DNA of 40,970 nt from Alphaproteobacteria bacterium (GCA_035516655.1 DATJAC010000251.1:1-40970), one strand, 5' to 3'; numbered from the stretch's first letter, positions 9,941 to 35,649 are shown. Program-made: numbers and translations. The notes: generated from the letters alone by a model not told the origin.

Positions 9941-10090
9941 GAGGGAAGGGAACCGGCTAACGGAGAGCGAGCGAATTTCTGATCCACGACACTAGGGCGG
10001 AGTCCAAGCCCCTCGCCCGGCGGGTGCGATCGAGCTTTACAAGCCGCCCCCTTCAAGGCTAGGGAAGGTGCCCCCGAGGGGGCCGTGCGA

Positions 10091-15491: not shown

Positions 15492-16220
15492 ATGCAGCGA
15501 AGTGCCGCCGCCTCGCCCAACCGCAAGCCAAACGCCATCGGCAGCAAGATCCTGCTCGTCGACGACGATGCGGCCTTGCGCCATTCGCTCGGCGAGCAGC
15601 TGCAGCTCCATGAGGAGTTCCAGACCGGCGAGGCGGACACGGGTACCAAGGCCCTCGAGATGGCGCGGCAGGAATATTACGATGCCGTCCTCCTCGACGT
15701 GGGCCTGCCCGACATCGACGGGCGCGAGGTCTGTCGCCTCTTGCGCCGCGACGGCTTCAAGTCGCCGATCATCATGCTCACGGGTGCGGACACCGATGCG
15801 GACACCATCCTCGCCCTCGACGCCGGTGCCAACGACTATGTGACGAAGCCCTTCCGCTTGGGCGTGCTCTTGGCCCGGCTGCGCGCCCAGCTGCGCCAGC
15901 ACCAGCAGAGCGAGGATGCGGTCTTCGCCATCGGGCCCTACAGCTTCCGCCCTTCGGCCAAGCTTCTGCTCGAGAGCGGGAGCAACAAGAAGGTCCGGCT
16001 GACCGAGAAGGAGGCCGCGATCCTCAAATATCTCTACCGCGCCGGCGAGAAGGTGGTCGGGCGCGAGACTCTGCTCAATGAGGTCTGGGGCTACAACGCC
16101 GGGGTCACGACGCACACGCTCGAGACCCACGTCTACCGGCTGCGCCAGAAGATCGAGGCGGACCCCTCCAAGGCGGTCATTCTGATCACCGAGGCGGGGG
16201 GCTACCGCCTGGTGCCGTGA
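15492..16220 (+). CDS. OmpR/PhoB-family response regulator (receiver + winged helix)
   Basis: A ggagag RBS lies upstream. Receiver motifs are KILLVDDD, LLDVGLPDIDG and ANDYVTKPF. The C-terminal LTEKEAAILKYL...THTLETHVYRLRQKIE forms the winged helix. Confidence 0.88.
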   Translation: MQRSAAASPNRKPNAIGSKILLVDDDAALRHSLGEQLQLHEEFQTGEADTGTKALEMARQEYYDAVLLDVGLPDIDGREVCRLLRRDGFKSPIIMLTGADTDADTILALDAGANDYVTKPFRLGVLLARLRAQLRQHQQSEDAVFAIGPYSFRPSAKLLLESGSNKKVRLTEKEAAILKYLYRAGEKVVGRETLLNEVWGYNAGVTTHTLETHVYRLRQKIEADPSKAVILITEAGGYRLVP

Positions 16221-16324
16221 CGGCCGTCACAGGCGAGGGGGCCCATCGGGGCTAGATTTGCTACCGTCGGTCCGGGGTGGGGCCGGCCGAGGGTGGGGTC
16301 GCAACGAGGAGAGGGGTTTGGCGG

Positions 16325-17158
16325 TTGGACCAGGCTCATAAATTCAGCTTGAAGTTCTGGGGCGTGCGCGGCTCGATCCCCTGCCCAGGGGCCGAATATG
16401 CCAAATATGGCGGCAACACCTCCTGCCTCGAGGTGCGCTGCGGGCCCCATCTTCTCATCTTCGACGCAGGAACCGGGATGCGCCCGCTGGGGCGCGAGCT
16501 CGACAAGCAGGGTCGGGTCGAGGCCGATGTGTTCTTCACCCATAGCCACTTCGACCACATCACGGGCTTGCCCTTCTTCAGTCCGGCCTTCAAGCCCGAG
16601 AACCGCTTCCGCTTTTGGGCGGGGCACCTCCTGCCCGAGTTCCGCCTCTATGACGTGCTGTGCGAGCTCATGATGGCGCCGCTTTTTCCCGTCCCCCTCG
16701 ATGTCCTCAAGGCCGACATCAGCTACGTCGACTTCAAGCCGCGCGAGACGCTCGAGCCGGGCCCGGGGATCAAGATTCGCACGGCTCCGCTCAATCACCC
16801 CAATGGTGCGATCGGCTATCGCATCGAGTACGCCGGCCGGGCCATGTGCTACGTGACCGACACCGAGCACGTCCCCGGCAAGCTCGATGCGAACATCCTC
16901 GGGCTCATCGAGGGAGCCGATTTTCTCGTCTACGATTCGACCTACACGGAAGCGGAGCTGCCGCGCTTTGCGGGCTGGGGCCATTCCACCTGGGAAGAGG
17001 GCGTGCGGCTCTGTGACGCGGCCCGGGTCAAGACCTTCGTCATCTTCCATCACGATCCCGCCCACGACGACGCCTTCATGGACCGCGTCGCCAAGAGTGC
17101 CGAGAAGGCGCGCCCCGGTACCCTCGTCGCGCGCGAGGGCATGGTGCTCACGCCCTGA
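16325..17158 (+). CDS. MBL-fold metallo-hydrolase
   Basis: KFWGVRGSIPCPG..., the THSHFDHITG metal motif (HxHxDH) and C-terminal FHHDP are present. I prefer the TTG at 16325, which is preceded by ggagagg. The GTG at 16277 is an alternative start. Confidence 0.8.
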   Translation: MDQAHKFSLKFWGVRGSIPCPGAEYAKYGGNTSCLEVRCGPHLLIFDAGTGMRPLGRELDKQGRVEADVFFTHSHFDHITGLPFFSPAFKPENRFRFWAGHLLPEFRLYDVLCELMMAPLFPVPLDVLKADISYVDFKPRETLEPGPGIKIRTAPLNHPNGAIGYRIEYAGRAMCYVTDTEHVPGKLDANILGLIEGADFLVYDSTYTEAELPRFAGWGHSTWEEGVRLCDAARVKTFVIFHHDPAHDDAFMDRVAKSAEKARPGTLVAREGMVLTP

Positions 17159-17273
17159 GAGCGGCGGCCGAGAAGGCTTGCAGAGCCGCCGCGTGTCCTC
17201 CGAGACGGCGGCTTCGCCGCCGCCTCAGGACGAGGAAAAATCTGTGCGTGGCAGAAAAAAACAACCTCGTCCT

Positions 17274-17451
17274 CAGAGTCTGACGCAAAATGATCCGATC
17301 ACTTTGAAAGCTCTATTCGTCACCCCGGCGAAAGCCGGGGTCCATGTCCGAAGCCCGACTCGAGGCCGACGATGGATTCCCGCTTTCGCGGGAATGACGA
17401 TCTGTGCCGGGTAATGCATTGAAGATAACGCGTTCATTTCCGGCCAGCCTC
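17274..17451. mobile_element. MITE-like non-autonomous element, copy 2
   Basis: Collinear with copy 1. It shares tcagagtctgac at the left end, gtcaccccggcgaaagccggggtccatg and atggattcccgctttcgcgggaatgacga inside, and aatgcattgaa at the right end. It lies between the convergent MBL gene and the permease gene. Confidence 0.6.
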
Positions 17452-17519
17452 CGAGGAGCCAGCGTCTCGAAGGACCGCCGCACTCCGTCCGAGGCAGTTT
17501 TTGACGAGGCGCCCTTCCC

Positions 17520-18701
17520 TCAGTGATAGGGGTCGGCCGCGTCCCTGAGCCCGTCGCCGAGGAAGTTGAAGGCGAGCACGACGAGGACCACCGGCACCAC
17601 GGGCAGCATGATCCAGGGATAGACGGCGACGGCGTTGATGTTCTGCGCCTCGTTCAGGAGCACGCCCCAGCTCGTGATCGGCGGCCGCAAGCCGAGGCCG
17701 AGGAAGCTCAAGGCCGTCTCGCCGAGGATCATGTTGGGGATCGAGAGCGTGGCCGAGGCGATCAGATGGCTCATGAAGCTCGGCAGGAGATGGCGCGCGA
17801 TCACGCGCCGGGGCCGCGCGCCCATCAGGATCGCCGCGGTGCAGAAGTCCTCCTCGCGCAACGCGAGCAGCTTCGAGCGCACGGCACGCCCGAGGCTCGT
17901 CCAGTCGATGAGGCCGAGGATGAGGGTGATGCCGAAATAGATCAGGACCGGACTCCAGGTCACCGGCAGGATGGCCGAGAGCGCCATCCATAGCGGCAGC
18001 TCGGGGAACGAGCGGATCACCTCGATGAGGCGTTGGATCAGGCTGTCGATCCAGCCGCCGTAATAGCCGGCAATCCCGCCGAGCGTCATCCCGAGGAGGA
18101 AGCTGAAGCTGATGCCGATGAGCCCGATGGTGAGCGAGATGCGCGCACCGTAGATGATGCGCGAGAGCATGTCGCGCCCGAGCCGGTCGGTGCCGAAGAG
18201 GAAGAGCGTTCCCCCCTCGGCCGGGCAGATGAAGTGGAAGTGCCCTCTGAGCACGCCCCAGAAGTCGTAGGCGTCGCCCCGGCAGAAGAAACGGATCGGC
18301 TCCACCTTGGCGGGGTCGGGGGTATAGACCCAGTGCAGCCGTTCCATGTCGAGCTTGGTGTCGAGGCCGTAAACGAAGGGCCCGATGAAGCGCCCGTCGT
18401 GGATGAAGTGGACCGCCTGGGGCGGGGCATAGAGAAAATCCGTGTGGCGCGTCTGGAGATTGTAGGGGGCGAGCAGCTCGCTCACCGTAATCGAGAGATA
18501 GAAGAGCAGCAGCAAGGCGCCCGAGACGACCGCGAGACGGTGCCGGCGCAGCTTCCACCACATGAGCTTCCACTGGCCGGCCAGGTAATAGCGCTCCTGG
18601 CCCGGCGCCATCGCATCGATGGCATAGGGATCGAAGGGCGCCTGCGAGACGTAATGCGCGAGGTGCGGGGCCTCGAGACGATCTTCGACGTCAACGCTCA
18701 T
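17520..18701 (-). CDS. ABC importer permease, OppC/DppC type with N-terminal extension
   Basis: MSVDVEDRLE... start with multiple TM segments. The EAA-like region is ALREEDFCTAAILMGARPRRVIARHLLP. The ATG overlaps the upstream permease stop (ATGA at 18698-18701). Confidence 0.85.
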   Translation of the reverse strand: MSVDVEDRLEAPHLAHYVSQAPFDPYAIDAMAPGQERYYLAGQWKLMWWKLRRHRLAVVSGALLLLFYLSITVSELLAPYNLQTRHTDFLYAPPQAVHFIHDGRFIGPFVYGLDTKLDMERLHWVYTPDPAKVEPIRFFCRGDAYDFWGVLRGHFHFICPAEGGTLFLFGTDRLGRDMLSRIIYGARISLTIGLIGISFSFLLGMTLGGIAGYYGGWIDSLIQRLIEVIRSFPELPLWMALSAILPVTWSPVLIYFGITLILGLIDWTSLGRAVRSKLLALREEDFCTAAILMGARPRRVIARHLLPSFMSHLIASATLSIPNMILGETALSFLGLGLRPPITSWGVLLNEAQNINAVAVYPWIMLPVVPVVLVVLAFNFLGDGLRDAADPYH

Positions 18702-19696
18702 CGCGTCGTCCCGCCGTGCAGCCGGATGCGCGGATCGAGCACTGCCAGGAGGAGATCGGAGACCAAGACGCCCACGACCGTGAGGGCCGCCATGAACATG
18801 AGGAAGGAGCCCGCGAGGTACATGTCCTGGCTGCGCAGCGCGTCGAGCAGCATCGGCCCGGTCGTCGGCAGGGAGAGCACGATCGAGGTGATGGCTGCCC
18901 CCGAGATGACGTGGGGGAGAAGACTGCCGATGTCCGAGACGAAGGGATTGAGCGCCATGCGCAAGGGATACTTGATGAGCAGCCGCCGTGCCGACATGCC
19001 CTTGGCGCGCCCGGTCACCACGTACTGCTTCTGCAGCTCGTCGAGCAGATTGGCGCGCAGGCGGCGGATCATGCCCGCGGTCCCCGCGGTCCCGATGACG
19101 ATGACGGGAATCCAGAGATGCCCGAGCACGGAAAGCACCTTGGGCCAGCTCCACGGCTGATCGAGAAATTTGTCGGCCATGAGCCCGCCGACCGAGACGC
19201 CGAACCAGGAGTTGGCGACGTAGAGGAGCACCAAGGCGAGGAGGAAATTGGGCGTCGCGAGCCCGATGAAGCCGAGGAAGGTCAGGCCGTAGTCGCCGAT
19301 GCTGTACTGGTGGGTCGCCGAGTAGACGCCGATCGGAAAGGACACCACCCAGACGAAGAGAATCGTCGTGAAGGAGACGATGAAGGTGAGCCACAGCCGG
19401 TCGCCGACCACCTTGGTCACCGGCAGGTTGTACTCGAACGAATAACCGAAATCGCCATGCAGCATGCCGGTGAGCCAGACGAAGTATTGCTCGAAAAGCG
19501 GCCGATCCAGGCCGTATTGCGCGCGCAGAAATTCGATCTTCTTGGGATCGACCGATTCGCCCTGGCTCTGCAGCTCGGCGACGTAGCTCGAGAGATAATC
19601 GCCGGGCGGAGCCTGGATGATGACGAAGACGATGATGCTGATCGCGAGCAGCGTCGGGATCATGATCAAAAGGCGCTGCGCAATGTAACCGAGCAT
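18698..19696 (-). CDS. ABC importer permease, OppB/DppB type
   Basis: MLGYIAQRLLIMIPTLLAISIIVFVIIQAPPGDY is the canonical DppB-type N-terminus. QYVVTGRAKGMSARRLLIKYPLRMALNP is the EAA loop. Confidence 0.88.
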   Translation of the reverse strand: MLGYIAQRLLIMIPTLLAISIIVFVIIQAPPGDYLSSYVAELQSQGESVDPKKIEFLRAQYGLDRPLFEQYFVWLTGMLHGDFGYSFEYNLPVTKVVGDRLWLTFIVSFTTILFVWVVSFPIGVYSATHQYSIGDYGLTFLGFIGLATPNFLLALVLLYVANSWFGVSVGGLMADKFLDQPWSWPKVLSVLGHLWIPVIVIGTAGTAGMIRRLRANLLDELQKQYVVTGRAKGMSARRLLIKYPLRMALNPFVSDIGSLLPHVISGAAITSIVLSLPTTGPMLLDALRSQDMYLAGSFLMFMAALTVVGVLVSDLLLAVLDPRIRLHGGTTR

Positions 19697-19728
19697 GGCT
19701 GCCGCCCCTCTCCGTCAGGCTCTTCCGC

Positions 19729-21672
19729 TCAAGGTGTCTTGGGCTTGATCGCCGCCGTCTCGGCGGGCGCATTGTCGAACCAGAAGGTATCCGGCTTGTA
19801 GATGCCGAAATGCGCACCCGGGTCCCAGCAATAGATGCCCTTCGCGGGGACGTTCTCGAGGTGATTGCTGACCACGACGGGTTGCGGCACGTCGGCGACG
19901 ATGCCGATGGTGTACTGCTGGTCCGCGTTGATCTCGAGCATGCGCTGCCAGATGCGCGTACGCTCGTCCTGGCTCCCGGCCGTTTCCCATTCCTTGTTGA
20001 GCTTGAGCAGCTCCTGCGCCTCAGGCAGATCGACCGCCTCGCCCGTCTTGCCGTGGGACTCGAAGTAATCGCCCCACTTCGGCCACTGCAGCTGGTCCTC
20101 CTCGGTGGGTGCCAGCTCCGCGGGGCTGATGTCGGCGACGGGGATGCCGTCGTCGAGCCCGCCCGCGATCGCCAGCAAGGTCGCACCCGCGAAAATGCGG
20201 TCGCGGAAGACCTCGAGCTGGGAGGGCTTGATGAAGAGCTTGATGCCGATCTGCTCCCAGGTATCGTGGATGAGCTGGAGCACGTCCGTCTGCTCCGTGG
20301 CATTGCCCGCCGTCTCCACCACCACTTCCATGGGCCTTCCGTCGGGCAGGAGGCGCAGGCCGCGGTCGTCGCGACCGCTCAGGCCCATCTCGTCCAAGAG
20401 CGCATTGGCGGCTTGGAGATCGAAGTTGGCCCAGCGCTTCTGGAAGTCCTCCTTGAAAAGGGGACTCGCGGACAGCACCGTATTGTTGCCCTCGGCGCCG
20501 AGGCCGAAATAGACCACCTTGTTGATCTCGTGCCGGTTGATCGCGAGCGAGAGTGCCCGGCGGAAGCGCACGTCGCGGACGATCTTGCGCCACACCGGAT
20601 CCTTCACGTTGAGGTTGGGATAGAGGGCCACCTGGGAGCCCGTGCCGGTGCGCCACAGCCGCACGGTGTAGTCGTGCTGCTTCTCGCCGCGCTTGAGGAA
20701 GGTGTAGTCGTCGAAGCGCAGGTAGCGCGCCTGAAGATCGGCCTCGCCGGTCTCGGTCTTGAGGGCCACCAGCTTGCCGTCGACGATGTCCATCGTGACG
20801 CTGTCGATGTAGGGCAGCTGATGACCCTGGGCATCGAAGCGGTAGTAATAGGGATTGCGCACGAAGACCAGGCGCTCGGCGGGCGGTTGGGTGGTGAGCA
20901 CCCACGGCTCGAGCGAGGGCAGATCCGGGTTGCTGTTCTTGTAGGCGTGGCCCTTGAGCGTGTGGAGGGCCGCCCAGTTGCGCTGCTTCGCGGCTTTGGC
21001 GAGCTTCTGGAGCTTTGCGGGGTCGGCGTATTTCGCGTGGAACTGCTTGAGGTAGTGAGCCGGCATGAAGATGTCGAGCGGCGTTGCATTCGCGAGCAGC
21101 GGCAGGAAGAGCGGGTTCGGCTTGGCCCAGCTGTAGCGCACCGTGGTGGCGTCGGGAAACTCGACCGTGGGCGGGGCGCCGTCGACGAGGAGTGCCCGCG
21201 TGAGCCCGTAGGGTGAGAGGTCCTTGTTGTTGGCGACGTCCTCCCAATAGTAGCGGAAGTCCTCGCTGGTGAAGGGCACGCCGTCGGACCAGCGCATGCC
21301 CTTGCGCAAGTGGAAAGTGAAGATGCGGCCGTCCTCGACGTCGAAGCTCTCGAGGATGTCCGGCACGAGCTGGAGTTTCTCGTCGAATACGACGAGCCGC
21401 GCGTAGCCGTAGGCCACCATGAGCCGCGTATCCTTGGCCCCCGACATCAGGATGCGCAGCGTCCCGCCCTGCCTGCCGATGCGCTTGCCGTCCTTGGCGA
21501 GATCGACGATGAGCGGCTGCTCGGGCGCACGCTCGGCAATCGGCGGCAGCTTGTGCTCCGCCACCGCGTCGCGGAGGGAGGGCGTCTCGTGCATCTCCAA
21601 GGCGAAGGCGCTGCCGGCCGCGGCCAGAAGCGCCGCCGCCAGTGCCATGACCGGGATGCCCGCGCGCATCAT
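19729..21672 (-). CDS. Periplasmic substrate-binding protein, family 5 (Opp/Dpp/YejA-like), 647 aa
   Basis: Signal peptide [24 protein letters not shown], then KLPPIAERAPEQPLIVDL, which is typical of large SBP_bac_5 proteins. The ATG overlaps the ATPase stop (ATGA at 21669-21672). Confidence 0.8.
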   Translation of the reverse strand: MMRAGIPVMALAAALLAAAGSAFALEMHETPSLRDAVAEHKLPPIAERAPEQPLIVDLAKDGKRIGRQGGTLRILMSGAKDTRLMVAYGYARLVVFDEKLQLVPDILESFDVEDGRIFTFHLRKGMRWSDGVPFTSEDFRYYWEDVANNKDLSPYGLTRALLVDGAPPTVEFPDATTVRYSWAKPNPLFLPLLANATPLDIFMPAHYLKQFHAKYADPAKLQKLAKAAKQRNWAALHTLKGHAYKNSNPDLPSLEPWVLTTQPPAERLVFVRNPYYYRFDAQGHQLPYIDSVTMDIVDGKLVALKTETGEADLQARYLRFDDYTFLKRGEKQHDYTVRLWRTGTGSQVALYPNLNVKDPVWRKIVRDVRFRRALSLAINRHEINKVVYFGLGAEGNNTVLSASPLFKEDFQKRWANFDLQAANALLDEMGLSGRDDRGLRLLPDGRPMEVVVETAGNATEQTDVLQLIHDTWEQIGIKLFIKPSQLEVFRDRIFAGATLLAIAGGLDDGIPVADISPAELAPTEEDQLQWPKWGDYFESHGKTGEAVDLPEAQELLKLNKEWETAGSQDERTRIWQRMLEINADQQYTIGIVADVPQPVVVSNHLENVPAKGIYCWDPGAHFGIYKPDTFWFDNAPAETAAIKPKTP

Positions 21673-23558
21673 GTCCGCAATGCTCCCAAATCGGCCGAGG
21701 CATCGGCGCGCACGAAATGTCCGGCCCCCAGCTCGACCAGCTCCACGTGGGCGCTCCCGTTGACGGTAAAGGGTGCCGGCCAGGCCGACGGAATCGACGC
21801 CTTGCCTTCCATGAGGGCCGAGAGATCGAGCTTGTGGCGGGGATCGGGCTCGGGCACGGCGGTGAGGAGCGCCTGCGTATAGGGGTGGACCGGATGGCTG
21901 AACAAGACCTCGCGGGGCGCCACCTCGACGATGCGGCCGGCGCACATCACCGCGATGCGGTCGGCAATATAATCCACGACCGCCAAATTGTGCGAGATGA
22001 AAAGATAGGTGAGGCCGAGGCGGTCCTTGAGGTCCTTGAGCAGGTTCAGGATCTGCGCCTGGATCGAGACGTCGAGGGCGGAGACCGGCTCGTCGCAGAT
22101 CAGCAGGTCCGGCTTGAGCGCCAAGGCCCGCGCAATGCCGATGCGCTGGCGCTGTCCGCCCGAGAAGCTGTGCGGATAGCGGTTGAGGAAGCGCGGGTCG
22201 AGGCCGACGAGCTCCATGAGCTCCTTCACCATCTCGCTACGCCAGGCGTGATCGCCGATGCTGTGGATGACGAGCGGCTCGGCGACGATGTCGAAGACCG
22301 TCATGCGCGGGTTGAGCGAGCCGTACGGATCCTGGAAGATGAACTGGACCCTGCGCCGGAAGGGGATGAGCTGGCTCGCGCTCAAGGCGCGCACGTCGAC
22401 GCGCACGCCGCGGTCGTTGAACCAGATCTCGCCCGCGTCGGCATTGAGGGCCCGCGTCACCACCTTGCTGAAGGTGGTCTTGCCGCACCCGCTCTCGCCG
22501 ACGAGGCCGAGGCATTCGCCGCGGCGCACATCGAGGCTCACGTGATCGAGGGCGGTGACTTCGCTGCTTTCCTTGCTCCCGAAAAAGCCCTGCTCGCGCA
22601 CGCGGAATTTCTTGCTGAGATCCTTGACCGACAGGAGCGGGCCCGCGGCATCCGCACCTTCCGGCCACGCTTCCTTGGCGGCGAGCAGGTTGCCCGTCTT
22701 CGGCGTGATCTCGCGCACCGGCTGGAGCCGCTCGTTCGGCTTCATGTCGAACTTCGGCACGGCCCTGAGCAGCGCCTGCAAATAAGGATGCGTCGGATTG
22801 CGGAAGATGTCCTCGAGCACGCCGTGCTCGGTGACCTGGCCGTTGTACATCACCACGACCTCCTCGGCGACGTTCGCCACTACGCCGAGATCGTGGGTGA
22901 TGATCAAGACCGCCATGCCGAGCTCGCCCTGCAGGTCCTGGATGAGCTTGAGGATCTGCGCCTGGATGGTGACGTCGAGGGCGGTCGTGGGCTCGTCCGC
23001 GATGAGGAGTGCCGGGCGGCAGACGAGCGCCATGGCGATCATGGCGCGCTGGCGCAAGCCGCCCGAGAGCTCGAAGGGATAGGTCCGGAGCGCGCGCGCG
23101 GGATCGGCGAAGCCGACGAGGCGCAGCATCTCCCTGGTGACCGCCATGCCCTCGGACTTGCTTCCGGCGCGGTGCAGGAAAAACGCCTCGCTCACCTGAT
23201 CGCCGATCGTATGGAGCGGGGAGAGCGAGGTCATCGGCTCCTGGAAGATGATGGAGATGCGCGCTCCCCGGATGGCGCGCATGGCGTCCGATTCCGGGTC
23301 GAGGTGCGAGATGTCGACCGGCTCTCCCCCGCTCGCCGGATCGTTGAACAGGATCTCCCCGCCCGAGATGCGGCCGTTGCGCGGCAGGATGCCCATGATC
23401 GCCTGGGAGACCACGGACTTGCCGGAGCCGGACTCGCCGACGAGGGCCACGGTCGAGCCCGGGCGCACCCGAAACGACACCCCTTTCACCGCTTGGATCG
23501 TGGTGTCGTGGACGCGGAACTCGACTTTGAGATCGCGCACGGTGAGGAGATTTGTCAT
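21669..23558 (-). CDS. ABC importer ATPase with two fused nucleotide-binding domains (OppD-OppF / YejF / GsiA type)
   Basis: Two complete NBDs are present. The first has GESGSGKS...LSGGLRQR...[12 protein letters not shown]. The second has GESGCGKT...FSGGQRQR...[12 protein letters not shown]. Confidence 0.9.
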
Positions 23559-24046
23559 GCGCGTTCTGCGGGCGGGGTGAGCCCAAGTGCCAGCAAATTG
23601 TTGCGGGTCGAGGAATCAAGGATCAAGCCGTTCGCGCGTGCGGCAATGGCCGCACGGCCGGCCAGGTCGACAAATCCGTCGAGGGAAGACTCGAGCGACA
23701 GCCGCTTTCTCCCTGCCGCGAGAGTGAGTTGCATCCAGCCTCCCGTGCGGTCGCGTTTTGTTGCGTAATATCTCAATTTGACCGCGCTCAACTCGCACCA
23801 GGGCAGATTAACGCAATGGCCGCCCCAGGTCGATATCCCGTCGTCGCCCATCTCGACGGTCGTGCGTTGCCGTATCCATGTGCGAATGCCGAAGGCAAGA
23901 AAAATCAGCGCGGCGCCGCCCAGGATCGAGGTGGCGACCGGCTCACCCCCGGCGAGAGCCGCGAGCCCGCCGGTGAGGACGAGACCGAGGGCCGCGCGCG
24001 CATAATCCCCCCGCAGTGCTGCGAAGGAATAGCGATGGAGGCTCAT
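23555..24046 (-). CDS. Small membrane protein, two predicted TM helices plus a PH-like soluble domain
   Basis: 163 aa. Hydrophobic stretches are [16 protein letters not shown] and [14 protein letters not shown], followed by a ~100-aa soluble domain. Both ends overlap neighbouring genes by 4 nt, which supports it being coding. Confidence 0.55.
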
Positions 24047-24843
24047 CGGCCCTCGACGGCTATGGCGCGCGGCGTTGCATCGGAGGGCGGGAAGACCGTC
24101 TCGATCTCGAGCCACAGCACCGCCGGATGGCCCGCGGTGCGCGCGAACAGTGTTTCGATGAAGCGCCAGGCCGGCGCATCGTGGACGAGGTGGTGGGTGA
24201 GAAGCCCGCTCGGCTCGTCTCGGTCGACCTCGTTCCGGCGGCGTGCGGCGAGATGGTCCACGAGGGCGCCGAGCGCCTTGGCCTCGCCGACGAAGCCGCG
24301 GCTGCCGCGCCAATCGATGACGTCGAGGTGGGCGTTGACTTGCCACAGACCGGGTGCTGCCCATGCCTGGGTACGCGCCCCCCAGGCGGAAAGACCGCGA
24401 AAGCCGAGGCTGGGGAGATGCGGCACGAGTGCAGGATCGATACGGTTCCATGGCGGCACCAGCACGGGCAAGGCGCGGTTGCCGAAGAGGGCCGCGAGAC
24501 GACGCCAGCCGAGCGCCACCTCGCGGAGGTTGACCTCGGGTGCCCGCGCCGGGCCGAGCTCGCCACTCTTGGCCCCGGTGGGGGAATGATCGACGTGCTG
24601 AAAGCCGTGCGGAAGCGGGACGACCCCCGGTACCTCGCGGAGTGCGGCCACGAGACTTGCCTGCGCGAAGTGCGGGACGGTCGCGAGGGCCAACGGGACG
24701 CGCCAAGCGGCGGCGATGGCGAGGAGCCGCGCGAGTGCCGGCGTCGACTCGACCGCATCGTCGTCGCGCCACCACAAGCTGGCACTCCGGCCTGCCGCCT
24801 GCCAGGCGTCAAGCTCGCGCGCGAGCGCTTCCCAACTGCTCAC
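24043..24843 (-). CDS. Polysaccharide deacetylase-like protein (CE4 / DUF2334-like)
   Basis: WWRDDDA resembles NodB motif 1 (xxDD). PLPHGFQHVDH resembles the His-x-x-x-His metal motif. The GTG start overlaps the upstream stop (GTGA at 24840-24843). Confidence 0.5.
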   Translation of the reverse strand: MSSWEALARELDAWQAAGRSASLWWRDDDAVESTPALARLLAIAAAWRVPLALATVPHFAQASLVAALREVPGVVPLPHGFQHVDHSPTGAKSGELGPARAPEVNLREVALGWRRLAALFGNRALPVLVPPWNRIDPALVPHLPSLGFRGLSAWGARTQAWAAPGLWQVNAHLDVIDWRGSRGFVGEAKALGALVDHLAARRRNEVDRDEPSGLLTHHLVHDAPAWRFIETLFARTAGHPAVLWLEIETVFPPSDATPRAIAVEGR

Positions 24844-26012
24844 GGCCTCACCCCTCCGCGCGGGTGGCGGGCGAGCGCCTCGCTCACAATGGCAACGCTC
24901 GCCGCCGCTCCCGACAAGTCGAGCGCTGCAAATGACGCGGGTGGGCCCGCCTCGGCCCGATCGACGGCCGCGGCGAGACGCTCGGGCGAGAGCTCCGCCT
25001 CGGGGACGAGCTGCACGAGCCCGCGCGCCGCAAGCCGCTCGGCGCGCAGCGTCTGCTCCGTCTCGCCGCGCCCGACGTAAGGCACCAGCACGGCACGCGC
25101 ACCGGCACGCGCAATCTCCATCACCGTATTATAGCCGGCCTGGGAAATCGACATACGGCAATTGGCCAGGAGGGTCGGGAAATCCGCGCGCGCGCGCTCG
25201 ACGACGACGCCGCAGGGTGCCTGGGCCGCAAGGGCCGCGAGGGCCGCCCGGGGCAGATTGCGGCCGGCAAGGAGACGCCAGCCGCGGCGCGCGGCGCTGC
25301 TGCGCGGTCGTGCCGCGAGCGCGCTCGCGAGCAGGACGGCCCCTACCGCCCCGCCGCCGGCCGAGACCACGACCTCGTCCCAGCCCGGATCGCCCGGGCA
25401 GCCGCGGGGTAGCGGAGGTGGTGCAACGTATCCGGTGTAGCAGAGACGGGCGCCGAGCATCGCCGCGCACGGGAAGCTCTCCTCGAAGCGCACGAGCCGC
25501 GGGTCGCCGTGCACGAGGACGAGATCGAAGCTTTGCTCGACAAGGGCCGCTGCCTCCTCGGCCCGCCCGGGCTTGCGCCGGGCCTGCACGATGTCGCGCG
25601 TCGAGGAGACGACGAGGGGGCGGGGCGCGGCCGCGCGCGCCGCGGCGAGGAGAGGAAGCAGCTCGAAGCGCATCTGCCGGCGGCCGAAGGGGAACATCTC
25701 GAGCATGAGCACGTCCGGCCGGCGCTCGGCGAAGAAAGCGAGCAGGCGCTCGCGGCGCGCGCCGCACCATGCCGCGTCAGGCGGCTTGCCCATGTCGTCG
25801 ACGAGCTCGGTGAAGCTCTCGTCCTTGCTGCTGAGCGGCGGGAGCTGCACCAGGTGCGCCCCGCCAAGGTCGAGCTCGGCTACGGGCATTCCGCCGGAGA
25901 CGAGATCGACCTCCCAGCCCGCCGCGGCAAAAGCGCGGGCGAGGCGTGCGGCGCGCGCGAGATGGCCGATGCCGAGCAGGCTCTGGACGTAAAGCAGGAG
26001 ACGGCGGTTCAT
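24840..26012 (-). CDS. MurG/GT28-like glycosyltransferase (GT-B fold), paralog A
   Basis: MNRRLLLYVQSLLGIGHLARAARLA N-terminus. C-terminal CRMSISQAGYNTVMEIARAGARAVLVP resembles the nucleotide-sugar-binding helix of the GT28 C-terminal domain. It is a paralog of 29053-30273. Confidence 0.65.
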   Translation of the reverse strand: MNRRLLLYVQSLLGIGHLARAARLARAFAAAGWEVDLVSGGMPVAELDLGGAHLVQLPPLSSKDESFTELVDDMGKPPDAAWCGARRERLLAFFAERRPDVLMLEMFPFGRRQMRFELLPLLAAARAAAPRPLVVSSTRDIVQARRKPGRAEEAAALVEQSFDLVLVHGDPRLVRFEESFPCAAMLGARLCYTGYVAPPPLPRGCPGDPGWDEVVVSAGGGAVGAVLLASALAARPRSSAARRGWRLLAGRNLPRAALAALAAQAPCGVVVERARADFPTLLANCRMSISQAGYNTVMEIARAGARAVLVPYVGRGETEQTLRAERLAARGLVQLVPEAELSPERLAAAVDRAEAGPPASFAALDLSGAAASVAIVSEALARHPRGGVRP

Positions 26013-26599
26013 GGTCGTGCCAAGGCCAGATTGCCGCCGATGAGGTGCGGCCGGCCGGCAGCGTCGAGCTCGAAGAGCTGTGCGGTCGCGGCGGCGAGGC
26101 GAACGGGCGGGGTGCCGAGGAAGTCCCAACCGGTCGCCAGGCCGATGACGGCGCGGATGACGCCCTTGTGCGTGACGGCCGCGACGGGTCGCCCGCCGGC
26201 CCCGATGCGCGCGAGCCAGGGTGCCACGCGCTGCTGCACCTCGCGCGGGCTCTCCCCGCCCGGCGGACGGAAGTCCAAACCGCGCGCTTCGTTCGCGGCA
26301 AGCACCGGCCCGAGCTCGGCGCGCAGCTCGGCGAGACGCCGCCCCTCCCACTCGCCCCAAGCCATCTCGATGAGGACCGGCTCGACCCCTGCCTCGCGGC
26401 CGAGCATGAGGCGAGCGGTGTCGCGCGCGCGCCTGAGCGGGCTCGTGACCCAATCGAAATCCGCGAGTACCGCCGGCGGGCGCCAGGTCGCGGCCGCGGC
26501 AGCCCCGGCAGCACTCAGGGCGATATCCGCGCGGCCCTGGATGAGACCGCGCTCGTTCCACTCGCTTCTGCCATGGCGGATGAGGGCCAACTGGATCAT
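26009..26599 (-). CDS. Histidine phosphatase superfamily protein (phosphoglycerate-mutase-like)
   Basis: MIQLALIRHGRSEWN carries the catalytic RHG motif, and VTHKGVIRA supplies the second catalytic His. It is 196 aa. Both ends overlap GT genes by 4 nt. Confidence 0.85.
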   Translation of the reverse strand: MIQLALIRHGRSEWNERGLIQGRADIALSAAGAAAAATWRPPAVLADFDWVTSPLRRARDTARLMLGREAGVEPVLIEMAWGEWEGRRLAELRAELGPVLAANEARGLDFRPPGGESPREVQQRVAPWLARIGAGGRPVAAVTHKGVIRAVIGLATGWDFLGTPPVRLAAATAQLFELDAAGRPHLIGGNLALARP

Positions 26600-27735
26600 G
26601 GCCCCTGCCCCTTGCAGAGGGTGCCGAGAATGGCGTCAAGCCTTGCCGCGGCAGGGGCGATGTCGTGCTCCGCCAAGGCGATCGCGCGCGCGCGCGCGCC
26701 CATGGCGCGCCGGCGCTCGGGATCGTCGAGCAGGGCAGCCATGGCGGCCGCGAAGCCGCCGGCGTCGCCCGCGGCGGCGAGCAGGCCCGCCTCGCCCTCG
26801 CGCACGACCTCCGGCACGCCGCGCTCGCGTCCCGCGACGACGGGAAGCCCCGCCGCCTGAGCTTCGAGGAAGGCCATGCCGAAGGCCTCGTGAACGGCGG
26901 GCCAGACATAGAGGTCGGCACTGGCATAGAGGGCGGGCAGCTCTGTTGCCGCGAGCGTGCCGAGGTAGCGCACGCGCCCGGCACCGAGGGGTGCTAGGAG
27001 GGCCGCCACCTCGGCGCGCGCCGGGCCGTCGCCGACGACGACGAGTTGCCATTGGCGCTCGGCGATGCGGCTCAGCGCCTCGGCGAGCACGCGATAGGAG
27101 GCAAGCTTCGCCCCCGGCCGCATCATCGCCACCGTCAGCAGCCAGGGCCGCGCCGGCTCAAGCCCGTAAAGCCGCGCCAGCTCCGCACGCGCGGGCTTGG
27201 CGCGGGCATAGATCGCGGTCTCGATGAAGGGCGCCAAAGGGACGACGCGCGCCCGCTCGGCACCGGCCGCGAGCAGGCCCGCGCGATCGTCGCCGTTGAG
27301 ATTGATGAGGAGGTCGGCGCGCGCGATCGCGGCCGAGCTCGCGGCAAATCCCCGCGCCCAGCGTCCCTGTGCCTGCTTGCCGGCCAACGACGCCTCGACG
27401 ACGACGTAAGGAATGGCGAGCGCCCCCGCGACTGCGGGCCCAAGCCAGTCCGGCGCCTTGTGGTAGAGATGATAGGTGAGCCAAAGGGCTGGCCGGTGCG
27501 CCGGATCGCGCAAGTAGCGCTGCGTGAGGCGGGCGGCGAGTGCCGCACCCGAGCGCTCGATCCGCCGCTGCCGGGCGCTGTCCCCGGCCCCCTCCCAACT
27601 GCGCAAGCGCGAGGCCAGCACGACGTCATGGCCGACGCTCCTCAGGGCGGCGACGAGCGCGCGCCCGAGACGGCGGTCGCCCGAAGGCACCGGATGATCC
27701 GGCGGCTTCAGCGGCGCATAGAAGGCGATGCGCAT
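26596..27735 (-). CDS. Glycosyltransferase family 4
   Basis: MRIAFYAPLKPPDHPVPSGDR start. C-terminal WPAVHEAFGMAFLEAQAAGLPVVAGRERGVPEVV contains the E-x7-E motif. Confidence 0.8.
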   Translation of the reverse strand: MRIAFYAPLKPPDHPVPSGDRRLGRALVAALRSVGHDVVLASRLRSWEGAGDSARQRRIERSGAALAARLTQRYLRDPAHRPALWLTYHLYHKAPDWLGPAVAGALAIPYVVVEASLAGKQAQGRWARGFAASSAAIARADLLINLNGDDRAGLLAAGAERARVVPLAPFIETAIYARAKPARAELARLYGLEPARPWLLTVAMMRPGAKLASYRVLAEALSRIAERQWQLVVVGDGPARAEVAALLAPLGAGRVRYLGTLAATELPALYASADLYVWPAVHEAFGMAFLEAQAAGLPVVAGRERGVPEVVREGEAGLLAAAGDAGGFAAAMAALLDDPERRRAMGARARAIALAEHDIAPAAARLDAILGTLCKGQGP

Positions 27736-29048
27736 GACCGCGGCCGACCGGCGCCGGCTGCGAGGCTCGTCTCGACGCGCCCGATCGACGCCCCCCCGGG
27801 TGCCCCCGCCGCCGCGCGAGCGAATTTGGCGGCGAGCCGCGCAATGCCGGGTACGGAGCTGAAGCCTTGGCGCACGCGCTCGGCTCCGGCCTTGCCGAGG
27901 GCTTCGCGCAGAGCGGGCTCCCGGATGAGGCGCTCGAGGCTTGCGGCTACGGCCGGCACGTCGCCGGGGGCTACGAGCACTCCGGTCCGGCCCGCGTCGA
28001 CCAGCTCGGCAACCGCGCCCGCGGTCGTCGACAGACAGGCGAGCCCCTGACTCTGCGCCTCGAGCAGCACGTTGGGCAGGCCGTCCCGATCCCCGCCCGG
28101 CGCGATCCGGCAGGCGAGCGCGAAGAGATCGGCGCGACGGTACTGGGCGAGGACGGCGTCCTGGGCGAGCGGGCCGAGCCAGCTCACGCGCAGGGCGATC
28201 CCCGCGCGCTTCGCCTGACGCCGAAGCGCTGCCGCGAGCGGCCCGCCGCCCACATGCACGAAGCGCCAGTGGAGCTCCATGGGCAGCCGCGCCAAGGCGG
28301 CAAGCAGGGTATCGTAGCCTTTCTTGGCCACCAGCCGGCCGACCGAGAGGATGACGACCGGGGCCGCAGGGTCGCTGCCATCGCGCGGCGGCACGTCGGC
28401 CGCGGGCCGCGCCGCGGCCGGCGGGAAGCGCGCGAGATCGAGCCCGTGATAGACGAGCTCGACCTTGCTCGGCTCGGTGCTCAAAGCCGCGAGATGCTCG
28501 GCACCGCTCCGGGTACAGCTGACGAGCCACTCGAGGCTCGCGAGCTTGGCGCGCTTCTCCCAAGCGGGGATCGTCCAGATGTCCTTGGCGTGCGCCGAGC
28601 AGCTCCACGGCAGTCCCGTCAGCAGGCTGGCGTAGCGCGCGACCGAGGCCGGCGTGTGGAGGAAATGGGCGTGGAGATGCGCCACGCTCGCCGGCAGCTC
28701 GTGCGCCAGCACGAGCGCCTGGCCGAAGCGGCGCACGCGGTTGGGCGTGGGATCGCGCGCGAGATCGGCGAGCCAGGCGGCACGGGCGCGGCGATAGCCC
28801 GCCCGCCCCTTGAGCGCGCGCCAAGCGGCGAGCACGCGACGCGGCTCGTCGTGCAGGTATTCGGGAAGATAGAGCACGGGGGCAGCGATCTCGCGATGGA
28901 TGGGGTGGTGCTGGGCATCGCTCGGATGGCGCAGCGAGACGATGTGAAGGGCGAGGCCGCGGCTCTCGAGCCCTTTGAGCTCCTGCGCGATGAAGGTCTC
29001 GGAGAGACGCGGGTAACCCTTGAGGACGACAGCTATGGTGGGCCGCAC
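27708..29048 (-). CDS. Glycosyltransferase family 4, WcaL-like (YPRLSETFI type)
   Basis: VRPTIAVVLKGYPRLSETFIAQEL N-terminus. C-terminal GGDRDGLPNVLLEAQSQGLACLST is present. I prefer the GTG at 29048 over the TTG at 29090. The 3' end overlaps the next gene by 28 nt. Confidence 0.75.
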   Translation of the reverse strand: MRPTIAVVLKGYPRLSETFIAQELKGLESRGLALHIVSLRHPSDAQHHPIHREIAAPVLYLPEYLHDEPRRVLAAWRALKGRAGYRRARAAWLADLARDPTPNRVRRFGQALVLAHELPASVAHLHAHFLHTPASVARYASLLTGLPWSCSAHAKDIWTIPAWEKRAKLASLEWLVSCTRSGAEHLAALSTEPSKVELVYHGLDLARFPPAAARPAADVPPRDGSDPAAPVVILSVGRLVAKKGYDTLLAALARLPMELHWRFVHVGGGPLAAALRRQAKRAGIALRVSWLGPLAQDAVLAQYRRADLFALACRIAPGGDRDGLPNVLLEAQSQGLACLSTTAGAVAELVDAGRTGVLVAPGDVPAVAASLERLIREPALREALGKAGAERVRQGFSSVPGIARLAAKFARAAAGAPGGASIGRVETSLAAGAGRPRSCASPSMRR

Positions 29049-29052
29049 GGCG

Positions 29053-30273
29053 CTACGGATGGCCCGTGGCCACCGAAACCGGGTGCACAAGGCGCGGCCT
29101 GAGATGGCGCTCGACCAGGCGATTGACGTTGCCGAGGCCGTCGAGCAGGCCCGGGACGACCATGTCCGAGGGCCGCTTCTGCTGGGGCAGCTGACGCAGC
29201 GCCGTCGCCATCATGTGGGGATCGCGCGCGTAGCGATCGACGAGCATGGCGACGAGTCCGAGCGCTTGGGCGCGCGAGGCGCGGATATATTGCTCGAGAC
29301 GCGGCTCGGTGCGGGGCACGATGAGGGCCGGCTTGTCGAAGGAGAGGATCTCGCAGAAGGTGTTGTAGCCGCCCATGGCGACGACGCCGACCGCCCCTTG
29401 GATGAGCGTCTCCATGCGCGCGTCGAAGGTCATCATCTCGACGTTCTCGAGCCGGTCCGCGCGCGTCATGAACTCGGCCTGGCGCTCGGGCTGCATGAAG
29501 GGGCCCAGCACCATGAGGGCCGGATAGGGCATGGCGGGGTGCACCTCGTAGGCGCGCAGGACCCAATCGATGAGGGCCTCGCCGTCCCCGCCTCCGCCTG
29601 GCGTGACGAGCAGATAGGGCACCTCGAGGCGCGGGCGGGCGGGCATATGGGCGAGGTTCTCGGGCAGCTTGCGCTCGAGATAGCCGGTATAGACCGTGCG
29701 TCGCCGCACGGAATCGGGAAGCTCGATGCCCTCGAGCGGATCGCATACCTGCGGCAGGCCGTAGATCCAGATCTCCTCGTAGAAGTCGGCGAGGGCCGGG
29801 AGCACCTTCTTGCGCTCCCATTCCGGTGCGAGCAGGGCCGGCTCGTCCATCACGTCGCGCAGGCCGAGGACGAGGGGCACGCCGCGCGCTTTCAGCATGG
29901 AAAGCGTGTCCTCGATCTCGCCGCGCAGGCCGAGGGGCTCCTTGTCGACGAGGAAGAGGTCCGGATCGAAGGTATCGGCCGTGTAGCGGATGATCGACGA
30001 GCGCATGGCCAGCATCTCGCCGATGTCGATATGGAGGTTGAGCGAGGTATATTCGCCGTTGTGGAGCTTGATCACCCCGGGCACGCGCACGAAATCGACG
30101 CGCGCGCGGAAATCGAAGCTGCCGATGATCGGCGAGCCCGAGAGGATGAGCACCGACATGTCCTTGTGGTGCTCGACGAGCGAATGCGCGATGGCACGAC
30201 AGCGCCTCAAATGTCCGAGGCCGAAGGTGTCGTGGCTGTAGATGAGAACGCGCGTGCCCTTGCGGGTCGACAT
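29053..30273 (-). CDS. MurG/GT28-like glycosyltransferase (GT-B fold), paralog B; first gene of the operon
   Basis: MSTRKGTRVLIYSHDTFGLGHLRRCRAIAHSL N-terminus. C-terminal GVVAMGGYNTFCEILSFDKPALIVP is present. Its architecture is collinear with 24840-26012. Confidence 0.65.
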   Translation of the reverse strand: MSTRKGTRVLIYSHDTFGLGHLRRCRAIAHSLVEHHKDMSVLILSGSPIIGSFDFRARVDFVRVPGVIKLHNGEYTSLNLHIDIGEMLAMRSSIIRYTADTFDPDLFLVDKEPLGLRGEIEDTLSMLKARGVPLVLGLRDVMDEPALLAPEWERKKVLPALADFYEEIWIYGLPQVCDPLEGIELPDSVRRRTVYTGYLERKLPENLAHMPARPRLEVPYLLVTPGGGGDGEALIDWVLRAYEVHPAMPYPALMVLGPFMQPERQAEFMTRADRLENVEMMTFDARMETLIQGAVGVVAMGGYNTFCEILSFDKPALIVPRTEPRLEQYIRASRAQALGLVAMLVDRYARDPHMMATALRQLPQQKRPSDMVVPGLLDGLGNVNRLVERHLRPRLVHPVSVATGHP

Positions 30274-30469
30274 TGCGACCGCTCCCTTCGTGCCGGCTTC
30301 CCCATAGCCTATCGCGGCCCTCCCCGTCAAAGCCAGTCTTGTGACGGTTGGGCGGCCGTCGGGCCTGGTGTCGGGTGCCGGGGCGGCATTTACGCCCCGC
30401 CCGGCCTGGGCTAATCTCGGGGCCGCCGCAGGGCTTTTTTCGACGATCGGGGGCTCAGGTAAAAAGACC
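30274..30469. promoter_or_regulatory. Divergent intergenic control region between the GT operon and the ABC/cNMP operon
   Basis: 196 bp lie between two divergent first genes. The region contains a hairpin ggggcg-gcattta-cgcccc and a T6 run (about 30436-30441). I could read no recognisable sigma70 or CRP box. Confidence 0.35.
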
Positions 30470-35644: not shown

Positions 35645-35649
35645 GCTCC

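Follow-up and report, generated by a model that had tools for sequence, protein, structure and literature searches.

The closest described relative of the locus considered here is the red/PPP cluster of Sinorhizobium meliloti, in which PPP stands for 'phazolicin-protecting polysaccharide' and phazolicin is a ribosome-targeting peptide antibiotic (Travin et al., 2023; PMC10128002). The present locus lies in a 40,970-nt stretch of DNA, analyzed as a whole and hereafter called the window, from Alphaproteobacteria bacterium (GCA_035516655.1, DATJAC010000251.1). An operon of eleven minus-strand genes at 17520-30273, numbered g1 to g11 in the direction of transcription, here joins glycan enzymes (g1-g6) and a small membrane protein (g7) to an importer of the Opp/Dpp type (g8-g11). 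The preliminary description of this DNA could not match the arrangement to any described pathway; judged by its genes, however, the locus is almost certainly orthologous to the red/PPP cluster smb21252-smb21271, and the operon is a compact Rhodospirillales-type version of that cluster, which has already been described genetically, though not chemically.

In a transposon-insertion sequencing (Tn-seq) experiment, nine genes between smb21252 and smb21271 were strongly needed for fitness in the presence of phazolicin, and insertion mutants of smb21252 and smb21265 had an 8-fold lower minimal inhibitory concentration of the antibiotic (PMC10128002). In the sections of that report that list affected genes, the strongest hits include smb21252, 21253, 21256, 21259, 21264, 21265, 21266, 21269, and 21271, with log2 fold changes of -3.5 to -5.4 for smb21252, 21253, 21264, 21265, 21266, and 21269; the same sections name the adenylate cyclase gene cyaA and a putative cyclic-nucleotide phosphodiesterase as further hits, and cite work in which Agrobacterium orthologues are reported to affect pyocyanin tolerance (PMC10128002). 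A Tn-seq study of symbiosis placed the importer genes SM_b21260 and SM_b21262 among the symbiosis genes, and the same list holds SM_b21251, 21252, 21256, 21265, 21266, and 21269 (Flores-Tinoco et al., 2020; PMC7268258). In addition, attack by Myxococcus induces seven of the nine PPP genes (PMC10315480). The S. meliloti importer genes are annotated as 'murein peptide/oligopeptide' transporters, and our literature search found no paper that identifies the product molecule or discusses the importer.

Importers that recapture self-made glycosides are known from other bacteria, namely the ATP-binding cassette (ABC) systems LpqY-SugABC, for trehalose in mycobacteria, and GgtABCD, for glucosylglycerol in Synechocystis. 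They follow the same logic, with an ABC importer retrieving a sugar released by the cell itself; however, these systems belong to the CUT1 family, not to Opp/Dpp, and are not translationally coupled to biosynthetic genes. SPH1118 of Sphingomonas sp. A1, a binding protein related to g9, acts on a foreign polymer of plant origin rather than on a glycan made by the cell itself, serving both to take this polymer up and in chemotaxis toward it (PMC9314435, PMC7055323).

Twelve genes of the window have full-length reciprocal counterparts among the smb21252-smb21270 genes, at 39-69% identity: those for four glycosyltransferases (g1, g2, g3, and g5), a deacetylase (g6), four importer subunits (g8-g11), an exporter-type protein (exp), a cyclic nucleotide monophosphate (cNMP)-binding protein (cnmp), and a metallo-β-lactamase (MBL)-fold hydrolase. 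For the four GT-B enzymes and the deacetylase, these counterparts are full-length reciprocal best hits at 42-56% identity. Relatives of g1 and g6 were found on rhizobial megaplasmids by protein searches of a plasmid collection, and the locus tags SMb21252-SMb21271, with SMb21260-63 for the importer, were fixed by published coordinates. An Azospirillum plasmid match to g1, tried as a further locus, proved to be an isolated gene. In S. meliloti the genes occupy 822-846 kb of pSymB, in an order that begins with a GT4 and a deacetylase gene overlapping by 4 nt, an MBL hydrolase, DUF3095, and a UDP-sugar dehydrogenase, continues with a cyclase, a PF14099 polysaccharide lyase, and, directly downstream of the lyase, the four importer genes, and ends with two COG4671-type glycosyltransferases flanking a GT4, followed by methyltransferase, exporter-type, cNMP-binding, and FkbM methyltransferase genes. 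As in the window, the exporter-type protein adjoins the cNMP-binding gene and shows the same degenerate motifs. Unlike the S. meliloti cluster, the window has a single operon with overlapping junctions and, in addition, a histidine phosphatase (g4) and a two-transmembrane (2-TM)/pleckstrin-homology (PH)-like protein (g7), but no nucleotide-sugar dehydrogenase, PF14099 lyase, DUF3095, or cyclase gene. A tblastn search of the window and 80 related loci found no counterpart of the dehydrogenase smb21256, of the lyase smb21259, or of the extra rhizobial methyltransferases; to judge from the enzymes encoded, these genes point to a uronic-acid-containing, methylated variant in rhizobia.

The 80 related loci are the best profile matches to g6, one genome being taken per species, and the sample leans to close relatives. 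They come from Rhodospirillales, Thalassospiraceae, Kiloniellales, Inquilinaceae, Reyranella, Odyssella, and Hyphomicrobiales, and from Acidiferrobacterales, Chromatiales, Rudaea, sponge-associated Gammaproteobacteria, and Betaproteobacteria, with marine, soil, sponge-associated, and plant-associated sources all represented. All 80 were searched with the window proteins by tblastn, and 42 of them are well flanked, with at least 7 kb on each side of g6. The preliminary description had staked its reading on importer and glycosyltransferase genes being neighbors in related genomes, and this neighborhood is kept: Opp-type genes lie within 10 kb of g6 in 38 of the 42 well-flanked loci, and three g9 relatives (59-61% identity) located on long contigs, those of L090, L091, and L092, all lie in a complete locus (3/3). 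The glycosyltransferase genes g2 and g1 are present in 39/42 and 38/42, respectively, exp in 29/42, cnmp next to exp in 28/42, and g7 between g6 and g8 in 27/42. The four well-flanked loci free of Opp-type genes belong to two Betaproteobacteria, one Chromatiales, and one Rhizobium, and in Rhizobium the parts of the locus are spread over >10 kb.

Among Alpha-, Beta-, and Gammaproteobacteria, at least six different arrangements of the genes preserve the linkage of glycosyltransferases and importer. The canonical order, found in about 30 of the 80 loci, has cnmp-exp divergent from g1-g11, often followed by a convergent MBL gene. Several Gammaproteobacteria carry g1-g5-g6 on one strand and g3-g2-g11-g10-g9-g8 on the opposite one, exp-cnmp sits between the glycosyltransferase genes and g6 in Thalassospiraceae, one locus has g9-g10-g11 upstream of g1, and the S. 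meliloti order differs again. The modules that stay intact are [g1 g5 g6], [g2 g3 g4], [g8-g11], and [exp cnmp]. Tight junctions are likewise conserved, g6/g7 overlapping by 4 nt in 33/49 loci and g10/g11 in 36/42, and the g7/g8 junction, at which the glycan block meets the transporter, measuring 10 nt or less in 34/46. Overall, the glycan enzymes are linked to an uptake system well beyond chance. The families concerned are large, with >4,000 protein clusters for g6 and at least 8,000 matches at E<=1e-30 for g9, more distant relatives included.

In the window itself, all eleven minus-strand frames are open with a single terminal stop each, giving proteins of 406, 446, 379, 196, 390, 266, 163, 629, 647, 332, and 393 aa for g1 to g11. 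A junction check located ATGA overlaps at 26596-26599, 26009-26012, 24043-24046, 23555-23558, 21669-21672, and 18698-18701, a GTGA overlap at 24840-24843, and a 28-nt overlap of g2 with g3 (27708-27735). Starting g2 at the GTG at 29048 leaves a 4-nt gap to g1 (29049-29052), whereas starting it at the TTG at 29090 makes the two genes overlap by 38 nt, and the sole 32-nt gap in the operon (19697-19728) holds GGAGAGGGG, a ribosome-binding-like motif. A public metagenome contig encoding an identical 266-aa protein carries eight of the genes whole, from the first glycosyltransferase (g1) to the ATPase (g8), and an independent gene call there gave the same lengths (406/446/379/196/390/266/163/629 aa). 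The starts, stops, and junctions first described are thus borne out, and single-operon behavior of the eleven genes is supported by the tight junctions kept in relatives. G+C content is 62-74% throughout the window, and the composition is unbroken at the operon. Scans of the whole window for tRNA and Rfam families found none, and promoter and terminator consensus scans gave counts equal to the shuffle expectation, which is a weak kind of evidence; these same weak scans detected neither a promoter nor a terminator inside the operon at 23.5-24.1 kb. The divergent intergenic region upstream of g1 (30274-30469) is, from its position, the presumed promoter region of the operon and of a second operon facing it; searches of it turned up neither a consensus promoter nor an Rfam family, nor any palindrome of note.

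Hidden Markov model searches against Pfam and NCBIfam uphold the GT28-like, GT4, phosphatase, and importer assignments first made, and from their sequences all four glycosyltransferases are to be classed as non-processive GT-B enzymes. The first, g1 (29053-30273, minus strand, as are all genes to g11), is of the Glyco_tran_28_C/COG4671 type (PF04101, 31.8 bits) and is a reciprocal best hit of SMb21264 over its full length at 53% identity; the name RedA for this orthologue comes from an exact-sequence look-up in UniProt (Q9X6W3), and a Protein Data Bank (PDB) sequence search with g1 gave no match. Its paralogue g5 (24840-26012) is of the same type (PF04101, 42.8 bits), with 49% identity to SMb21266 and 26% to g1, and both appear distantly MurG-like. 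The GT4 enzyme g2 (27708-29048; Glycos_transf_1, 98.8 bits) is 56% identical to SMb21265 (RedB), its nearest solved relatives, at about 70 bits, being PimB', sucrose-phosphate synthase, and MshA. The second GT4 enzyme, g3 (26596-27735; Glyco_trans_1_4, 111 bits), is 44% identical to SMb21252, and its nearest solved relatives are MshA and BshA (about 72 bits). MshA, BshA, PimB', and sucrose-phosphate synthase are all retaining enzymes with small phosphorylated or lipid-anchored acceptors. The g3 product is followed by g4 (26009-26599), a branch 1 histidine phosphatase (His_Phos_1, 131.7 bits) in which the RHG motif is present, translationally coupled to g3; their overlap of 4 nt recurs in 31 of 41 related loci, and no g4 counterpart was found in the rhizobial loci.

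The 266-aa g6 protein (24043-24843), orthologous to SMb21253, matches nothing in Pfam or NCBIfam, even at E<=10, and a search of PDB sequences with its profile returned nothing useful, although NCBI names the family "polysaccharide deacetylase family protein". An AlphaFold2 model from a 15-sequence alignment (pLDDT 90) gave Foldseek matches to CE4/NodB-fold proteins with probability 1.0 and TM scores of 0.5-0.62, including 3rxz, a Mycobacterium putative polysaccharide deacetylase, PgdA, ArnD, and chitin (oligosaccharide) deacetylases, so that the CE4-like label given earlier is now confirmed at the level of the fold. Invariant in the family are WWRDDDA (D27-D29), HG..H..H (H79, H83, H86), PPWNR, and HH..HD; the DDD and H..H..H motifs would be compatible with a metal-dependent deacetylase. 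Because g6 lacks a signal peptide, it is expected to act in the cytoplasm. The small membrane protein g7 (23555-24046), with no Pfam hit at E<=10, is modeled (pLDDT 94) as two long N-terminal helices, a beta-sandwich, and a C-terminal helix. The best Foldseek matches are PH domains, some of them bacterial, but weak (E 0.06-0.5, none at E<=0.001), which leaves the earlier 2-TM/PH-like label reasonable but weakly supported.

In three rhizobial loci, which are free of the phosphatase, the orthologues of g3 and g6 themselves overlap by 4 nt. This coupling, the coupling of g3 to g4, and the CE4 fold of g6 together suggest transfer of an N-acetylhexosamine, dephosphorylation, and de-N-acetylation. 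The order of chemistry suggested, from modest similarities and gene order, is that of the first mycothiol steps, in which MshA, the MshA2 phosphatase, and MshB act in turn; the bacillithiol enzymes BshA and BshB offer a similar comparison. The likeness lies in the position of g3 nearest to MshA and BshA, in the coupled phosphatase, and in the metal-type deacetylase. However, g3 scores 86-87 bits against NCBIfam cut-offs of 462 (MshA) and 274 (BshA), far below both, g6 has the CE4 rather than the LmbE fold, the locus holds no cysteine ligase (MshC/BshC), and besides g3 it has three more glycosyltransferases, together with an exporter-type protein and an importer. Identity as a mycothiol or bacillithiol locus was rejected on the cut-offs, the deacetylase fold, and the lack of a cysteine ligase in the locus.

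As to polymer pathways, a Pfam-type scan of the eleven genes, the scanned flanking open reading frames (ORFs), and the related loci revealed no priming phosphoglycosyltransferase, Wzx, Wzy, ABC-2 permease, GT2 synthase, or outer-membrane export protein in the versions examined. Lipopolysaccharide-core, capsule, Wzx/Wzy, and synthase pathways were rejected because these defining parts were not found. A defined oligosaccharide or glycoconjugate is more likely than a long surface polymer, although parts encoded elsewhere are possible.

The importer has the full makeup of an Opp/Dpp system (PepT, TC 3.A.1.5), namely a binding protein with a signal peptide, two permeases, and an oligo_HPY ATPase. 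The ATPase g8 (21669-23558) is a fused double nucleotide-binding domain (NBD) protein with two ABC_tran and two oligo_HPY domains, canonical Walker A/B and H-loop in both halves, and 60% identity to SMb21260. The permease g10 (18698-19696), of the OppB/DppB type, has BPD_transp_1 and BPD_transp_1_N and is 69% identical to SMb21262, and the permease g11 (17520-18701), of the OppC/DppC type, has BPD_transp_1 and is 66% identical to SMb21263. The fused double ATPase, the oligo_HPY tails, and, for gsiABCD, the gene order (ATPase, binding protein, permease, permease) resemble E. coli GsiABCD and YejABEF; unlike in those systems, however, all subunits fall below the equivalog cut-offs, as seen for g8 against GsiA (620 bits) and YejF (581 bits), for g9 against GsiB (32 bits, cut-off 594), and for g11 against Opp4C (261 bits).

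The binding protein g9 (19729-21672), orthologous to SMb21261, is a periplasmic family-5 protein (SBP_bac_5, 215 bits) with a signal peptide. It scores 302 bits against the solved structure 5ipw, whose ligand is not annotated, 240 bits against SPH1118, which binds pectin oligosaccharides (PMC9314435), 89 bits against MelB (alpha-galactosides), and 62 bits against a Vibrio binding protein for chitin oligosaccharides, compared with 50 bits or less against the peptide binders OppA, DppA, and MppA and a weak 53-78 bits against CntA/NikA. (The suspicion that 5ipw is the S. meliloti binding protein, both being 633 aa long, was checked and is not so.) Because its nearest solved relatives of known ligand bind oligosaccharides rather than peptides, the ligand of g9 is likely an oligosaccharide, and uptake of a turnover product, as first proposed, stays the best reading of the transporter. 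Like g9, SPH1118 is a large cluster-C family-5 protein, and equivalents of its stacking Trp594 and of Arg294 are kept in g9; unlike in SPH1118, Arg57, Arg438, and Arg496, three of its four pocket arginines, are not, the mapping being uncertain in loops, where pairwise and multiple alignments disagree. The ligand would thus be other than that of SPH1118. The conservation of the importer with the pathway, its absence from the phazolicin hits in the sections that list them, and the lyase gene upstream of it in S. meliloti make recovery of the product or its fragments, rather than supply of an essential precursor, the simplest role to propose. As a separate observation, a g9-like gene is missing between the ATPase and the permeases in nine loci (L016, L005, L006, L029, L032, L039, L059, L061, and L079); in L016 a binding-protein gene lies about 3 kb further downstream, and the others show no g9-like gene in the DNA covered.

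A second operon runs in the opposite direction, 67-196 nt upstream of g1, and consists of exp (30470-33136, plus strand), cnmp (33155-33613, plus strand), and a methyltransferase gene (33610-34098, plus strand). The exporter-type protein is 888 aa long from 30470, as called on the identical contig, or 931 aa from a GTG at 30341, and combines ABC_membrane (PF00664, 68 bits) with a split ABC_tran domain. The preliminary description recognized no export parts, a statement that must be withdrawn in view of this protein, which accompanies the operon in 29 of the 42 well-flanked loci. It is orthologous to SMb21268/21269 (39% identity to the rhizobial orthologue over 689 aa) and scores 193 bits against MsbA, 164 against HlyB, 159 against HepA, and 150 against ChvA-type exporters, all far below the curated cut-offs. 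The type-IV transmembrane domain fused to an ABC domain and the LSxxQRQK signature are those of MsbA, ChvA (NdvA), and PglK, but in contrast to these exporters the Walker A, Walker B, Q-loop, and H-loop are degenerate, an insert of about 290 aa between Q-loop and signature, with no Pfam match at E<=10, splits the NBD, and there is a dedicated cNMP-binding partner. In the window the motifs read GAGASGKEE, LLILND-A, and LNR, where a competent NBD would have Walker A GxxGxGK[ST], Walker B hhhhDE, and the H-loop His, and 33 relatives are similarly degenerate. Across these 34 members, Walker A is GxxxSGK[D/E], with Ser/Thr never following the lysine and the lysine itself replaced in several, as in the S. 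meliloti and Mesorhizobium orthologues; the Walker B Asp is mostly Asn, the Q-loop Gln and H-loop His are not kept, and the signature LSxxQRQK and the D-loop are. From these motifs, an exp homodimer should not hydrolyze ATP in the usual way, yet SMb21269 is needed for phazolicin tolerance despite its degenerate NBD. The protein may instead be a regulated conduit, may be paired with another partner, or may use its cNMP-binding neighbor. A 596-aa ABC protein of the Rhizobium locus was rejected as an orthologue, being a canonical half-transporter. In S. meliloti the exporter-type gene lies in two frames, as ORFs of 160 and 831 aa in strain ml28 (L085, 8890-11960) and as two annotated genes, SMb21268/SMb21269, in strain 1021, and being split it has no protein accession in the plasmid table; the frameshift may be a real or a programmed one.

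The neighboring cnmp encodes a stand-alone cyclic-nucleotide-binding protein of 152 aa (cNMP_binding, 74 bits) with 60% identity to its S. meliloti counterpart SMb21270. At the other end of the operon, convergent with g11, lies the MBL-fold hydrolase gene (16277-17158, plus strand; Lactamase_B_2, 84 bits), 47% identical to its S. meliloti counterpart SMb21254; a weak match to a model of cyclic-nucleotide-degrading phosphodiesterases (7e-8) and to class-II phosphodiesterases marks it as a possible cyclic-nucleotide phosphodiesterase, and the copy of one relative has a weak Apyc1 match. Next to it is an OmpR-type response regulator (15492-16220, plus strand; Response_reg and Trans_reg_C), which recurs beside the MBL gene in the same position in L006, L022, L039, L060, L090, and L091, but not in L092. 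Cyclase genes occur within or beside many versions of the locus, and the convergent genes that follow the operon in L090 (14932-17120), L091 (14146-17292), and L092 (14115-17180) comprise a 450-aa adenylate/guanylate cyclase, a Methyltransf_24 protein (not in L090), and the MBL hydrolase; of this convergent set the window retains the hydrolase and the regulator only. An anti-phage Pycsar reading of the cyclase, cNMP, and Apyc1-like signals was rejected, as the matches are at the domain level only, no effector domain is joined to the 152-aa cNMP protein, a cyclase is absent from the window, and the cyclase of relatives lies at the opposite end.

These observations can be joined in the following scheme. 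On homology, g1, g2, g3, and g5 together with the phosphatase g4 and the deacetylase g6 would form a cytoplasmic assembly line. Gene coupling and the nearest relatives suggest that g3 would add an N-acetylhexosamine to a phosphorylated acceptor, after which g4 would take off the phosphate and g6 the acetyl group, in parallel to MshA, the phosphatase, and MshB, and that g1, g2, and g5 would extend the product to a defined oligosaccharide or glycoconjugate, which probably contains glucosamine (GlcN). Synteny and the S. meliloti phenotype suggest that exp would then carry this product across the inner membrane, at a level set by the cNMP-binding partner with the cyclase and the MBL phosphodiesterase-like enzyme found in relatives. 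Finally, the importer g8-g11 would take the product, whole or broken down to fragments, back up from the periplasm. One regulated unit would thereby make, release, and recapture a product that would help the envelope to withstand antimicrobials and would matter in host interaction. We give this mechanism as a whole about an even chance of being right.

Several points weigh against it. The importer genes do not appear among the affected genes in the sections of the phazolicin report that list them, by which the importer would be dispensable for that phenotype (PMC10128002). The degenerate NBD makes ATP-driven export by an exp homodimer doubtful, neither a priming phosphoglycosyltransferase nor an outer-membrane export component was found in any version of the locus, and the product has never been isolated from any organism. 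The case for MshA-like chemistry is built on gene order and on matches scoring about 70 bits, and most of the pocket arginines of SPH1118 are, on an uncertain alignment, missing from g9. Moreover, since the window lacks the dehydrogenase and the lyase needed in S. meliloti, the products of the two loci are probably not identical.

A narrower form of the scheme would make the locus a cyclic-nucleotide-gated glycan shuttle, in which the hydrolysis-dead exp with its insert, together with the cNMP receptor, would act as a regulated conduit releasing a self-made, GlcN-containing oligosaccharide to the periplasm, and the Opp-type importer would pump it back. Taken jointly these claims are unlikely to hold; if they did, three proteobacterial classes would tune a periplasmic protective glycan by means of a cyclase/phosphodiesterase pair.

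The preliminary description favored a product that is possibly a cytoplasmic glycoside. In this case a soluble compound, such as a compatible solute, would act inside the cell, the dead-ATPase exp would be a cNMP-gated release valve, and the importer would recapture what leaks. A GT4 enzyme and a phosphatase overlapping by 4 nt are typical of sucrose-phosphate or glucosylglycerol-type synthesis, there is neither a lipid-carrier priming enzyme nor an outer-membrane export part, the degenerate NBD argues against active export, and a mechanosensitive-channel gene adjoins the S. meliloti locus. Nevertheless, four glycosyltransferases and a deacetylase exceed the needs of known compatible-solute pathways, and the rhizobial cluster also encodes a lyase and a dehydrogenase that forms uronic acid. 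When S. meliloti loses the exporter orthologue, the effect is the same as when it loses a glycosyltransferase, namely phazolicin hypersensitivity, an envelope-type phenotype that an extracytoplasmic product explains more easily. We therefore regard a cytoplasmic product as less likely than an exported one, and this explanation as a whole as improbable.

Alternatively, the flow could be reversed, with an oligosaccharide or a muropeptide being imported from outside or from the periplasm by the Opp-type system, remodeled by the phosphatase, the deacetylase, and the glycosyltransferases, and returned as a product by exp. The conserved synteny applies equally to this arrangement, which also agrees with the 'murein peptide/oligopeptide' annotation in S. 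meliloti and the distant MurG likeness of g1 and g5, and a related Yej-type transporter is reported to recycle muropeptides in Agrobacterium (PMC9790009). However, importer mutants should then share the phazolicin phenotype, and the importer is not among the affected genes where these are listed (PMC10128002); furthermore, g9 resembles oligosaccharide binders much more than it does MppA or OppA. Import of a precursor thus appears doubtful, and recovery of a product made by the cell itself is preferred.

A secreted small glycoside serving as a public good or signal, with the gene logic of opine-type metallophores or siderophores, is very unlikely. One conserved unit does combine synthesis, an exporter-type protein, and an importer with a family-5 binding protein, and the importer parts show sub-threshold NCBIfam similarity to Cnt/Nik systems; but there are no metal-related or amino-acid-ligating enzymes, g9 scores a weak 53-78 bits with CntA/NikA but 240-302 bits with the clade of oligosaccharide binders, and the S. 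meliloti phenotype is cell-autonomous enough to be seen in pooled Tn-seq, which speaks against a freely shared product. The least credible idea, and one already disfavored, is that a general peptide or oligosaccharide importer merely sits downstream with no functional tie, as the abundance of Opp-type systems in these genomes and the absence of importer genes from the listed phazolicin hits might suggest (PMC10128002), because the adjacency outlasts at least six rearrangements in three proteobacterial classes, the start/stop overlaps of g6/g7/g8 are conserved, the three loci sampled from g9 all hold the full set, and importer and glycosyltransferases are listed together in the symbiosis Tn-seq (PMC7268258).

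Beyond the published gene list, the comparison adds the importer, the dead-ATPase exporter-type protein, and the cyclic-nucleotide module to the conserved unit. Being a compact operon, the Rhodospirillales version lends itself to heterologous expression, and its gene coupling suggests a testable core of N-acetylglucosamine (GlcNAc) transfer, dephosphorylation, and deacetylation. The conserved unit, the compact operon, and the predicted core chemistry make the identity of the product directly approachable.

The remaining features of the window are noted here. Three G+C-rich hairpins, TCCCGC-GAAA-GCGGGA, CCCCGGC-TTTC-GCCGGGG, and GGCGGCGGC-GAA-GCCGCCGTC, lie in the 360-nt spacer that separates g11 from the convergent MBL gene (17159-17519); they were missed by the simple terminator scan and could be terminators or a repeated palindromic element. 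In the divergent operon, the third gene, also called on the identical contig, encodes a protein dependent on S-adenosylmethionine (SAM; Methyltransf_17, 201 bits) and overlaps the stop of cnmp by 4 nt; other SAM methyltransferases hold equivalent places in the rhizobial, Beta-, and Gammaproteobacterial versions.

A second sugar-related gene group lies on the other strand from the operon, at 3404-12807 (plus strand), and includes a heparinase II/III-like protein (3404-5215), an asparagine synthase (6803-8689), a GT4 (about 8.7-9.8 kb), a CysD/NodP-like protein (10085-10906), and a fused CysN/CysC NodQ-like protein (to 12807), all on the plus strand. The S. meliloti PPP locus likewise adjoins a nodP2Q2-containing, presumably sulfated-polysaccharide cluster (PMC5498481). 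Beyond the divergent operon, an exonuclease III gene (34106-34897) and genes for a PaaA/PaaC-like di-iron oxygenase subunit beside a ferredoxin-NAD(P) reductase with Fer2, FAD_binding_6, and NAD_binding_1 (34913-36678, minus strand) seem unrelated to the glycan locus. Farther on, two adjacent paralogues (36978-38855 and 38936-40636, both minus strand) each encode many TPR repeats followed by a putative 2-oxoglutarate (2OG)-Fe(II) oxygenase domain (PF13759).

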